Source: Candidatus Hodarchaeota archaeon
GTDB lineage: Archaea > Asgardarchaeota > Lokiarchaeia > Sigyniarchaeales > SOKP01
Assembly (NCBI GenBank): GCA_048887225.1
Contig: JBHLJY010000002.1
Coordinates: forward strand, 160,001-224,000
DNA: 64,000 nucleotides
Direction: 5' to 3'
Part shown: positions 688 through 6,881 of the stretch, one piece after another
How the letters are laid out: every line of letters starts with the position of its first letter
How positions within the stretch are numbered: position 1 is the first letter of the stretch
Notes under the pieces: model-generated
What the model was told of the DNA's origin: nothing
What the model saw: only the letters and a program-made list of their open reading frames with translations
Database searches by the model: none
Program-made: the position numbers and the translations under genes

Positions 688-833
688 CTTTTTTCACTTT
701 TTTATTATATTTTTTAATTTAGTTTAATTTAAATTTGCTTTAAGAGATATTTATACCTTATTGGACAATTGTTTATATATGATTGAAATTTAATCAATTT
801 GTATATTATACAATTTGAGGTGATATATCTAAC

Positions 834-1469
834 ATGAGTTTTAAAAAAATGATGGGAACCATTTCAGATAAGTTAAAGATTTCTGGAGGAGTTATAAGAG
901 ATGCTATTAAACAAAATAAGGATTATATAGACGCTGAATTAAGAGTTGTAAAAATAGCTCAAGAAGGTATTAATGCATTAAAATCTTATGCTGAGGCTGA
1001 AACGCCAAGCTTAAAAACATCTGTGAACGCATTAGCTAAAAAACTTGAAAGTATAGAAAAAGCAAGAGAAGAAATGGCAAATCAATTGCAAGAAAAATTT
1101 ATTGGCCTTCTTAATGAAGTTGCGGAAGAAGAAAAAAATTTGAGTGAGAAACTCAGGATAGCTGACGATGCTCAAAAAGACTTGGCAAAAGCAGAAAATA
1201 AACTTGCAAAACTAGAATCTAAACCAAAAGAAAAGCTAAAACCTGAACAAATTGATGAGGCTAAGAGCGCTTTAAAAAAAGCTGATGGAACTTACCGGGA
1301 AGCTGAGGCTGAAGCTAATGCTGTAGCCAATGCTTACAATAAAAAAAAATTGGATTTAACGAAATCTATATTAAAGAATATAGAAGATATCGAAAGAATA
1401 TATCATGATAAGGCTTTGAAGCAAATTGGAGCTAAAAAAGAAGAAGCAATTAGTGTTTCAGATGAATAA
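834..1469 (+). CDS. All-helical BAR-domain-like protein (FAM92/sorting-nexin BAR-like)
   Basis: 211 aa, three long amphipathic helices; ETPSL...LESIEKAR...EKFIGLL and KKKLDLTKSILKNIEDIERIYHDKAL resemble FAM92 BAR from recall; GAGGTG RBS upstream. Confidence 0.55.
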   Translation: MSFKKMMGTISDKLKISGGVIRDAIKQNKDYIDAELRVVKIAQEGINALKSYAEAETPSLKTSVNALAKKLESIEKAREEMANQLQEKFIGLLNEVAEEEKNLSEKLRIADDAQKDLAKAENKLAKLESKPKEKLKPEQIDEAKSALKKADGTYREAEAEANAVANAYNKKKLDLTKSILKNIEDIERIYHDKALKQIGAKKEEAISVSDE

Positions 1470-2914: not shown

Positions 2915-3535
2915 ATGGAACCAATTACTCCTGATATAATAATTCAACTTATGTTTATCGCCTTTGTGATGGTTTTATTTAGTATATTGTTGAATAAAAT
3001 TCTTGGATTAAAACCCTCAAAAATGAAAGAAATTAGAGATAAAGCACAGAATCTAAGAGAAAGGGTGCGACAAGCTGAGATTTTAGGAGATACTATATTA
3101 ATGCAACAATTACAAGTTGAAACAATGCAAATGATGAAAGATATGTTAAAAAAACAATTGGTTCCAATGTGTATTAGATGTTTGATTTTTATCGGAATTT
3201 TTATTGTTATTTCTATATTTTACGGTCAATACGAGTATTGGTTTTGGATTTATTTCTTGTTCTCTTTTAGTTTTTCAATGATAGCAATGGGCTTAAGCTA
3301 TGCTTATAAAAAGGTAAAAAGGAAAGAAGATAAAAGAAAAATTTTTGCTAAAGAAATTATGGAGTCTATTTATCCATCTCAACAACTCCAACTTCAAGGT
3401 TCGGGCTTTCATTTAACAGGTCATCCTGCAACAGAATCCCAAGACTCTACTAATTTTCAAGAAAGCCCTAATGCAAAAGAGGAGAACCAAAAAGTTGAAA
3501 AGTCTGATGATTGGAAAGATCGAATGCAAAATTAA
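2915..3535 (+). CDS. EMC3/TMCO1/Get1-like (DUF106, Oxa1 superfamily) membrane insertase
   Basis: TM1, cytosolic coiled-coil, Met-rich MMKDMLKKQLVPM segment, then two TMs. Confidence 0.7.
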   Translation: MEPITPDIIIQLMFIAFVMVLFSILLNKILGLKPSKMKEIRDKAQNLRERVRQAEILGDTILMQQLQVETMQMMKDMLKKQLVPMCIRCLIFIGIFIVISIFYGQYEYWFWIYFLFSFSFSMIAMGLSYAYKKVKRKEDKRKIFAKEIMESIYPSQQLQLQGSGFHLTGHPATESQDSTNFQESPNAKEENQKVEKSDDWKDRMQN

Positions 3536-4487: not shown

Positions 4488-5819
4488 ATGCCAAAAGATC
4501 GTGAAGAAGACGATAAATCAATCGTTGACGCTCTTTCTGCTCTAGGATGGGTCGAAGAAAAAGAAGAAGGCGAAGAGTCAACAGAATTAGAAGAGGACCT
4601 TCAAACTCAACTTAATTTCTTTAAAGAACAATATAGACAATTAACTGAAGACATAAAAAAGCTTACTAGAGAAAAAGATGAGTTGATGAAAAAGAAAAAC
4701 GAATTGTCAAGAGAAAATGAACAACTATTACAAATGACTCTTACCGAAAAAAATAAGACCGATGACGTCCAAGCTGATAATGAATCTATAAAAGAAAGAG
4801 ATCAAATTATTGCTGATAAGGATCGATTAATAGATGAATTGGAAACGAAAATTCAAAAAATGACTGAAAAAATCGATAGTCGTGGACATCAGATTGCGGC
4901 AGTCCAAGAATTAAAAGACATTATAGCCCAGAAAGACCAAGAGATTGAAGAAAAACAACATTATATGCATCAACTATATTCTACAATCAGCGAGAAAAGT
5001 TTCGAAATTGAAGAAAAAACTCAAGAGATACTGGATATGGATAATAAAGTTAAAAATTTAGAAGAGAAAATATCCCATTACGAAGATTTAACTCCAATTA
5101 TGGAGGAACAAAATCAAAAAATAAAAGATTTAGTCTCTCAAATTGACAAACAGAAGATTGAACTCGAGAGCTTACAAGAAAAGGATAATAAAATAAGAGA
5201 ATTAGAAGAGCAAATTCAGTATCTAGAAAATGAGATGAAACTTGATACAGTAAAAAAATCAAAATATGAAAAAATTAGATTGCTTGCGGAAAAAAAAGAC
5301 GAAATTATAACAGAAAAGGAAAAAGCGATTTTTGAAGCTGAAAATTCCTTAAAATTATCAAATCAAAAAATTAATGATTTATCACAGCAATTAGAAACTT
5401 TTAATCTTGTTAAAAAAGATTTGGAGAAAAAAGAAGAACGCATTAAAACATTAGTAATTGAAATTGAAGAAAAAATTCAAAAAGAGCTTGCAAATAAGGA
5501 AACAATTAAAAATCTTGAAGACAAACTTGAAAAGGCTCAAAAATCTAGTGCTAAATATGAAATACAATTTAATAATAATGTAAATTTACTACAAGAAAAA
5601 GAAACAGAGTTAAAGAATTTAAATAGTAAAATTAAAGAATTAAACAATAAGTTAACTGAAGGAGAAAAAATCGAGGATAAGCTTTTAAACGATATCCAGA
5701 AGATTAAAGATGATAAATTAAAGCTTGAATCAGAGCTGGAAAAAAAGGATGCGGAGTTAGTAGAACTAAAGAAAAAAATAAAATTAATGCGTAGAGAAAT
5801 ATCAAAATCTAAAAAATAG
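4488..5819 (+). CDS. Long coiled-coil protein
   Basis: 443 aa, nearly continuous E/K/Q-rich heptads. Confidence 0.8.
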   Translation: MPKDREEDDKSIVDALSALGWVEEKEEGEESTELEEDLQTQLNFFKEQYRQLTEDIKKLTREKDELMKKKNELSRENEQLLQMTLTEKNKTDDVQADNESIKERDQIIADKDRLIDELETKIQKMTEKIDSRGHQIAAVQELKDIIAQKDQEIEEKQHYMHQLYSTISEKSFEIEEKTQEILDMDNKVKNLEEKISHYEDLTPIMEEQNQKIKDLVSQIDKQKIELESLQEKDNKIRELEEQIQYLENEMKLDTVKKSKYEKIRLLAEKKDEIITEKEKAIFEAENSLKLSNQKINDLSQQLETFNLVKKDLEKKEERIKTLVIEIEEKIQKELANKETIKNLEDKLEKAQKSSAKYEIQFNNNVNLLQEKETELKNLNSKIKELNNKLTEGEKIEDKLLNDIQKIKDDKLKLESELEKKDAELVELKKKIKLMRREISKSKK

Positions 5820-5882: not shown

Positions 5883-6881
5883 CTATTTCTCCCTCCAAAC
5901 GACCCCACAGAGGCCGCATTTATATTTCTTGCCGTACATTCTAGGATAATCAAGAATAATGTTGGTCTTATCTATCGATTCGTGAATCAAGCTTTTATCT
6001 TCGTTATCGCATTTTGGACATTTTCTGCGTCCTTCGACTTTTTGAATTGTCATAATTGATTCATCGACTTGTCCTGGCATACCAGGAGCTGCACTTGAAG
6101 ATACTTCTGTTTTTATCTCGGGAGTTACTTCCTCCTTAAACTCTGCTTTATGTTCTGGTTCAATAGCTGCAGTAACTTTATCTGCTTCAGTTTCAGGCTC
6201 TAATTCTGACTCTGCTCTTAATTGAACGGCATCTGATTCTTTATAATCCTCACCTTTTTCTAAGGCAGCTAAAAACTCAGCATCATCTCCTTCTTCAAAT
6301 ATTACCTCATTTTGATCACCTGCTCGATCGGCATCAATACTTCTAGCCCATTGACCTGACTTTACCTTCTCTTTTACACTACAGGTTGTTCCCTGCCATA
6401 TATAAATTTTCGTTCCCAAATCTGCAACAAAACAATCTTCAGAATCTAAAGAATCCTTGGAAAAAGGGACTTGAATCATTTTCATAGAATTAATGTCTTC
6501 AAATTCTTCAGAAGATATTCTATATAAAACATTTTTATGTTCAGCAAATTGACCCCAATCCCCAGTTACAACGTCTTTTAACATAGTCTTAGCGATATTT
6601 TGTTCAACAATCTTCATTGCGCCCATGGAAGCGATGAGTTTCAAAAATTCTGGTGTCTCTTGACCTTGATCAACGGTAATAATTTTTGCTGCCCCGCCCC
6701 TCTCCTGGTCTAACCTACGAGCATTGGCTGCACCTGTAGTCTTCTCGTCAACGCTACATTTACTTCCAATCCATATATAAATAGTTTTTTCGTCGTCAAT
6801 AAGATACACATCGCCAGTAGAGAACACTGTATTCTTTATTTCGTTAAGCTCCCCCTTGTTTATTAAATATAATTTAACCAT
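5883..6881 (-). CDS. Two-domain gelsolin-family actin regulator with C-terminal zinc ribbon
   Basis: FSTGDVYLID...IYIWIG...DQGQETPEF and LDSEDCFVAD...IYIWQG...EEGDD gelsolin repeats; acidic linker; CPKC...CGLC. Confidence 0.9.
   Translation of the reverse strand: MVKLYLINKGELNEIKNTVFSTGDVYLIDDEKTIYIWIGSKCSVDEKTTGAANARRLDQERGGAAKIITVDQGQETPEFLKLIASMGAMKIVEQNIAKTMLKDVVTGDWGQFAEHKNVLYRISSEEFEDINSMKMIQVPFSKDSLDSEDCFVADLGTKIYIWQGTTCSVKEKVKSGQWARSIDADRAGDQNEVIFEEGDDAEFLAALEKGEDYKESDAVQLRAESELEPETEADKVTAAIEPEHKAEFKEEVTPEIKTEVSSSAAPGMPGQVDESIMTIQKVEGRRKCPKCDNEDKSLIHESIDKTNIILDYPRMYGKKYKCGLCGVVWREK

Follow-up and report, generated by a model that had tools for sequence, protein, structure and literature searches.

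The open reading frame at 834..1469 (+ strand) of the window, that is, of the whole 64,000-nucleotide stretch of a Candidatus Hodarchaeota archaeon contig that was analysed here, encodes a 211-residue BAR-domain protein whose closest eukaryotic relative, judged from sequence comparison, is the FAM92/CIBAR family. We hold its homology to FAM92/CIBAR and its BAR fold to be nearly certain, modelling predicts that it forms an antiparallel BAR homodimer, and we consider the full model of a FAM92-like BAR dimer, membrane binding included, to be probable. BAR proteins are central to membrane shaping in eukaryotes, and what is at stake here is their origin and the use that Asgard archaea may make of them, together with actin, in forming protrusions.

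The frame (protein P0001) begins with an ATG and includes its stop codon within the coordinates given above, and a putative Shine-Dalgarno-like motif, GAGGTGA, can be read at 817..823 (+), 10 nt 5' of the ATG. It is a real gene and more than a chance reading frame, since it has 24 close homologues, since its family comprises 60 representatives at 50% clustering among the 1.8 billion proteins searched, and since its dN/dS is 0.29 against an orthologue that is 89% identical and whose neighbouring genes are 93-97% identical to those found here. The gene caller had used Met6 as the start (P0002), whereas most of the 19 homologues in the alignment keep the MSFKK N-terminus, which makes position 834 the likely true start. 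The gene is flanked on either side by AT-rich gaps. In the earlier note, which was made from the letters of the DNA, this product had been described as a stand-alone helical protein of about 210 residues, and that description holds, with 211 residues, an all-helical single domain, and no conserved operon partner. All the strings quoted there are also found in the protein, namely MSFKKMMGTISDKL at residues 1-14, ETPSL at 56-60, KLESKPKEKLKP at 126-137, and YHDKAL at 190-195.

The kinship to FAM92/CIBAR is carried by several searches with single sequences, family models, and profiles. The Pfam FAM92 model (PF06730) matches the protein with 24.7 bits, narrowly passing its cut-off of 23.6, while the BAR_3 model reaches 25.5 bits and stays under its own cut-off. 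The same FAM92 model matches 15 of the 19 aligned homologues, with a best value of 2.9e-10, and in the genome scan it gave 25.1 bits for the BAR gene and no match in any of 14 control prokaryotic genomes. When the PDB sequences were searched with the single sequence, CIBAR1/FAM92A was the sole match (9.4e-5); the 19-sequence profile (A1) found CIBAR1 at 1.5e-16, pairing positions 11-208 with chain positions 21-216, and the 46-sequence profile (A2) found it at 4.6e-22 over about 190 colinear residues. CIBAR1 was in fact the only strong PDB match of the family profiles, the other BAR families standing at 1.7e-5 or worse, with amphiphysin at 1.7e-5, arfaptin and IRSp53 at about 4e-3, endophilin at about 0.02, and SNX1 at 0.07 with profile A2. 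Two motifs stand out in the alignment: the archaeal Y52-A-x-x-E56-T-P-x-L-K, which pairs with Y-A-S-T-E-T-P-N-L-K of FAM92A, and the archaeal F/Y-H191-x-K-A-L, which pairs with F-H-G-K-A-L. These are the ETP-L and YH-KAL segments in which the earlier note had seen a likeness to the helices of FAM92 and SNX-BAR proteins, and both of them align with CIBAR1 in the profile searches. The FAM92 half of that proposal was thus borne out, but its SNX-BAR half does not go beyond the superfamily level, given the SNX1 value and the lack of a Vps5 match.

Other identities within the superfamily were also considered. An SNX-BAR/Vps5 identity was rejected, as PF09325 has no match in the genome at E values up to 1 and the protein carries no PX domain. 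The I-BAR/IMD identity was likewise rejected, PF08397 giving no match to the protein at E values up to 10 and none from the gene in the genome scan, with weak IMD matches being confined to a few relatives. The host genome, with 3.27 Mb and 98% completeness, contains the BAR gene in a single copy, and the Vps5, BAR, and IMD models detected no other credible BAR-superfamily gene in it; below threshold there is a second FAM92 match at E 0.1 and an IMD match at E 0.27.

The predicted fold agrees with the sequence kinship. The AF2 model built with the family alignment has a pLDDT of 84.7 and consists of three long helices: helix 1 at residues 18-56 (885..1001, +), which forms the core of the predicted dimer interface and ends in the conserved turn Y52-A-E-A-E56-T-P58; helix 2 at residues 58-128 (1005..1217, +), which in the AF2 model extends outwards from the central bundle as far as the distal tip and places residues 59-74 in the interface; and helix 3 at residues 137-198 (1242..1427, +), which in the AF2 and dimer models brings I183 and H191-x-K-A-L195 into the interface. 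With Foldseek, the top 50 matches in the PDB all belong to the BAR superfamily, FAM92A being the first of them; the check proposed in the earlier note, whether the best matches would be BAR domains or a generic coiled coil, was therefore decided for BAR. With VIA-align, arfaptin superposes with Z 16.5 and an rmsd of 2.5 A over 195 residues, FAM92A with Z 16.2 and 2.7 A over 197 residues, and APPL, SNX1, ACAP1, endophilin, and Bin1 with Z values of 14-15.6. The same program superposes I-BARs with an rmsd of 6.4-7.1 A vs. 2.4-2.7 A for classical BARs, which argues that the monomer has the geometry of a classical BAR domain.

A two-copy prediction gave an ipSAE of 0.77 (0.76-0.77 over three runs), and the highest value among three controls was 0.00. 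Of 30 proteins whose solved structures are pairs, 20 attain the ipSAE mark, as does 1 of 23 whose solved structures are single chains; the pass may partly reflect likeness to already solved BAR dimers. The runs share at least 82% of their contacts, and the partner pLDDT is at least 85. The membrane-curving dimer proposed in the earlier note is matched, as regards the pairing, by a predicted homodimer that is symmetric and antiparallel, with clean controls. The interface is made by helix 1 (residues 16-57, with contacts 34:34 and 38:38), by residues 59-74, and by residues 172-199, and the predicted pairing is that of the canonical BAR six-helix core, with the loop 126-137 at the two distal tips. 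Eleven of the 21 residues that are invariant among the 19 homologues fall in this predicted interface (p 0.004). In FAM92A itself, mutation of Y127, F256, or H264 breaks or perturbs the dimer (PMC12269497), and the alignment pairs Y52, I183, and H191 of the archaeal protein with these three residues. The antiparallel dimer is thus supported by the conservation of its interface, by the dimer residues equivalent to those of FAM92A, and by the tandem BAR-BAR proteins that occur naturally in the family.

These tandem proteins are single chains of 450-550 residues holding two complete BAR domains joined by a linker of about 15-40 residues, and such natural fusions support BAR:BAR pairing. Examples are P0037, P0033, P0050, and P0046, and also one from Ca. 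Harpocratesius repetitus (L063); the loci G138:C1:4484207-4485544 and C1:2539872-2541236 encode further ones, and in one sister family within the host's order the tandem predominates. P0037 folds with a pTM of 0.77 and a pLDDT of 85.6 over 451 residues, in a model that suggests an intramolecular BAR pseudo-dimer. The family holds other architectures as well: P0076 (467 aa) combines N-terminal HEAT repeats with a BAR domain at 245-441, and P0080 (321 aa) combines PEGA/PD40-like parts with a partial BAR-like C-terminus.

The distal tip of the predicted dimer is the basic and conserved loop between helices 2 and 3, with the sequence KLESKPKEKLKP (residues 126-137; 1209..1244, +). The basic tip that the earlier note had pointed out is present in the protein as described, and within it K126, K130, P131, E133, and K134 are invariant in the 19 homologues; the segment 119-137 alone holds 7 of the 21 invariant residues (p 8e-4). 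FAM92A binds liposomes via five basic regions on its concave face, and mutation of its central alpha-1 patch (R108, K109, R112, R114, and K116) cut liposome binding by about 90% (PMC12269497). We mapped these residues through the alignment of the 19-sequence profile, with an offset of 65 between the chain index and the mouse numbering that was checked on R108/K109/R112/R114/K116, R201/R203/R205, and H264. In this mapping K126, K130, P131, and K134 of the archaeal tip align with R201, R205, a proline, and an arginine of FAM92A, in its lipid-binding region 2, so that of the three mouse residues R201, R203, and R205 of the distal tip, which here are K126, E128, and K130, two are kept as K or R. 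In region 4 two of three are kept (mouse K169, K183, and K194; here N94, R108, and K119), in region 3 one of three (mouse K176, K178, and R179; here K101, L103, and S104), and in region 1, the central helix-1 patch, one of five, its mouse R108, K109, R112, R114, and K116 being D33, A34, R37, V39, and I41 here. Altogether 6 of the 14 alignable lipid-binding basic residues of FAM92A are kept as K or R. At the central-patch positions the archaeal family has the consensus N-A-x-x-x, with an invariant E35 nearby, and the net charge is +1 for the protein studied here and -6 to +6 across the family.

The N-terminal segment (residues 1-16; 834..881, +), which includes MSFKKMMGTISDKL, is basic and moderately amphipathic, and may be an H0-like membrane-inserting helix. 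For residues 2-15 the hydrophobic moment is 0.50 and the net charge +3, the moment being reached by 205 of 5000 shuffles (4%). An amphipathic N-terminus had been claimed in the earlier note, and the moment and the charge speak for it; against it, the length of the segment varies within the family, where the moments range from 0.21 to 0.57, its helix 3-13 has a pLDDT below 50, and the signal is modest.

As for its distribution, the narrow profile matched 58 and the broad profile 62 of 400 genomes of the Asgard phylum, and all the matching genomes belong to the class Lokiarchaeia, in four families of the host's own order and one family of another order; the remaining Asgard families among the 400 genomes sampled gave no BAR-family match. 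Within the genus, the BAR gene is found in 4 of 9 genomes and is missing from several near-complete congeners, which implies that it is dispensable. The relatives that carry names are MAGs of Promethearchaeota and Promethearchaeia, and Ca. Harpocratesius repetitus. Among the hits of an exhaustive phmmer search, which lists no names, and of a profile word search, whose sole source-given name is archaeal, no protein could be recognised as eukaryotic. The closest named relative (L031; JBHLQY010000001.1), with a protein 89% identical and full synteny, is labelled Candidatus Thorarchaeota, and another relative (L042) is labelled Hermodarchaeota; these NCBI labels look loose, given that the host's order includes Ca. 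Harpocratesius repetitus, a member of the Lokiarchaeia.

The gene order around the BAR gene is kept within the genus only, and across genera no gene recurs beside it and no conserved operon partner was found. Its local neighbours encode a radical-SAM enzyme, an EMC3/TMCO1-like insertase, GtrA, a 443-residue coiled coil, and a protein with two gelsolin domains, and they offer no functional clue that could be transferred to the BAR protein. Some of these neighbours deserve a description of their own. The radical-SAM gene (1722-2801, +) is listed with an ATG at 1896, and its CxxxCxxC motif, CNAKCPFC, lies upstream of this codon in the same frame; the frame opens at 1722, no ATG, GTG, or TTG occurs before 1896, the relatives have open frames of 362-370 residues, and, on these sequence grounds, translation probably starts at a non-canonical codon that precedes 1896. 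The EMC3/TMCO1-like membrane insertase homologue (2915-3535, +) scores 26.1 bits, just below the cut-off, and no Pfam family matches the K/E-rich coiled-coil protein of 443 residues (4488-5819, +); for both genes, synteny with the BAR gene is limited to the genus. In at least two congeners, G174 and G168, which have no BAR gene, a protein of 124-153 residues with a C-terminal zinc ribbon, unrelated to the BAR gene, is encoded directly upstream of the radical-SAM gene (L071:679-1140, +, and L070:745-1119, +). In G174 this small gene has on its two sides the neighbours that the BAR gene has in the window, a membrane-protein gene and the radical-SAM gene, so that the locus is variable. The two-gelsolin-domain protein (5883-6881, -) also ends in a zinc ribbon, GRRxCPKC...KKYxCxxCG; this ribbon is shared with the small protein encoded at that variable locus (E 1e-7), and four or more further long open frames of the host genome contain it too (L074-L078).

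We suggest the following working model for the protein. Each chain is a kinked three-helix bundle, homologous to eukaryotic FAM92/CIBAR, and in the predicted dimer two chains pair in antiparallel fashion through helix 1 together with the first part of helix 2 and the last part of helix 3, giving a central six-helix core with the basic helix-2/3 loops (K126, K130, and K134) at its far ends. Most likely, the two tips of this dimer are its main points of contact with anionic cytoplasmic membrane of positive curvature, with further contacts from the scattered basic residues K101, R108, and K119 of helix 2 and perhaps from the basic N-terminal segment, and the role of the dimer would be to sense or stabilise the curvature of necks, of invaginations, or of the bases of protrusions. 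The classical BAR geometry suits such a positively curved cytoplasmic membrane rather than the inside of the shaft of a protrusion. The homology, the fold, and the predicted dimer are what the analysis shows; from them we infer that the protein binds membrane, which sign of curvature it prefers, and where in the cell it acts, and because the central patch is not conserved and the net charge is near zero, membrane bending should also be read as a conditional part of the model.

Three other readings of the same data have to be weighed against this model. That the protein is a generic coiled coil or helical bundle, owing its BAR likeness to the K/E-rich composition of its helices, seems to us extremely improbable. 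Its composition is indeed rich in K, E, and A, it has weak matches to unrelated coiled-coil Pfam families (E 0.01-10), the profile search also lists haemagglutinin HA2 and designed helical proteins (E about 0.1), and helical models often reach Z values of about 13 by chance; but the CIBAR1 profile match, over its roughly 190 colinear residues, is at least 15 orders of magnitude better than any non-BAR match, the motifs shared with CIBAR1 (Y-A-x-x-E-T-P-x-L-K and F-H-x-K-A-L) are not compositional, the top 50 fold matches are all BAR with an rmsd of 2.4-2.7 A over at least 195 residues, and the dimer is predicted to be symmetric, with controls that score zero. The profile match, the fold matches, and the dimer prediction thus largely refute the coiled coil. 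Like arfaptin and APPL, the BAR protein could also act mainly as a scaffold for other proteins or as an effector of small GTPases, and not as a curvature generator, the dimer then recruiting an Arf-like GTPase or actin regulators with weak or indirect membrane contact. That arfaptin is the top structural match (Z 16.5) agrees with this possibility, and so do the missing central lipid-binding patch of FAM92A with the net charge near zero, the HEAT-repeat fusion known within the family, and a 2026 Lokiactin co-IP of L. ossiferum in which an ARF GTPase, significantly enriched, and two BAR-domain proteins, not significantly enriched, turned up (PMC13716822). We nevertheless regard a mainly scaffolding role as rather unlikely, in view of the invariant basic tip, which aligns with a proven lipid-binding region of FAM92A, of the basic and amphipathic N-terminus, and of the conserved neighbours, among which there is no GTPase or actin gene; moreover, in eukaryotic BAR proteins both roles can coexist.

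The remaining reading concerns the history of the family, which may not be an Asgard heirloom but may have come by horizontal transfer from a eukaryote to the ancestor of the Lokiarchaeia, in which case it would have little bearing on the origin of BAR proteins. The confinement of the matches to the class Lokiarchaeia (62 of the 400 Asgard genomes sampled), their patchiness in families and genus, and the specific affinity to one eukaryotic subfamily, FAM92, and not to BAR domains at large, are all in keeping with a transfer. Its probability is low in our estimate, since the identity of the protein to CIBAR1 is only 17-20%, the archaeal family has diverged internally to 20-25% identity and has architectures of its own (tandem BAR-BAR and HEAT-BAR), and the GC content of the gene (32%) agrees with that of the window (about 29%); as a lead only, eukaryotic FAM92 clusters are seen in chordates as well as in oomycetes, which would make the family an old one among eukaryotes. 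A far-reaching version of the opposite history, in which the Lokiarchaeial family would be the direct archaeal ancestor of FAM92/CIBAR and the founding form of the classical BAR domain, working with Lokiactin at the necks or bases of protrusions, we offer as a speculation that is a little less probable still than the transfer; if it were true, a Lokiactin-linked role at protrusion necks or bases would prefigure what CIBAR does at the ciliary base. The FAM92-like BAR dimer with a membrane-binding tip remains our preferred reading of the protein.

The existence of the family as such is not news, and the protein is a further member of a known but uncharacterised Asgard BAR family. A putative BAR domain protein, the first in any prokaryote, was reported for Lokiarchaeum in 2015-16 (cited in PMC4917890), and Eme et al. 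described Vps5-BAR homologues in Asgard archaea in 2023 (PMC10307638). The ESM Atlas holds a 51-member Promethearchaeota cluster that was automatically named "FAM92 protein domain-containing protein" and has a TM of 0.87 to our AF2 model; a shape search of the same resource beyond this cluster returned F-BAR and then unrelated helical proteins. In the literature searched we found no paper that names the FAM92/CIBAR kinship of archaeal BAR proteins and none with the biochemistry of an archaeal BAR protein. Being small, soluble-looking, single-copy, and confidently modelled, with its interface and tip as targets for mutation, the protein lends itself well to a first test of an archaeal BAR domain at the biochemical level, and its FAM92/CIBAR kinship, together with the missing central lipid patch, sharpens what such a test should seek.

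In comparison with known systems, the protein differs from the Asgard Vps5-BAR proteins in being neither Vps5-like nor fused to Vps28. Arfaptin, APPL, ACAP, amphiphysin, and endophilin superpose on its monomer with Z values of 14-16.5 and an rmsd of 2.4-3.5 A over about 195 residues; with the classical BARs and N-BARs other than FAM92 its sequence likeness is at the superfamily level only, and it carries no SH3, PH, or other appended domain, although its N-terminal segment is possibly comparable to the H0 of N-BARs. In the case of FAM92, the partners CBY1 and DZIP1 and the sites at the ciliary transition zone and the mitochondrial inner membrane have no archaeal counterpart, and the archaeal protein has neither the C-terminal extension nor, with one of five residues kept, the central basic patch of helix 1 of FAM92A, while its tip loop is 3 residues longer than that of CIBAR1/FAM92A through a KLKP insert. 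Nevertheless, CIBAR1/FAM92A and CIBAR2/FAM92B (PF06730; PDB 9uhd and 8ceg) are the same three-helix BAR of about 200 residues, colinear with the archaeal protein over nearly its full length, and CIBAR1/FAM92A shares with it the turn between helices 1 and 2, the motif at the end of helix 3, the basic and proline-containing tip loop, and the dimer positions.
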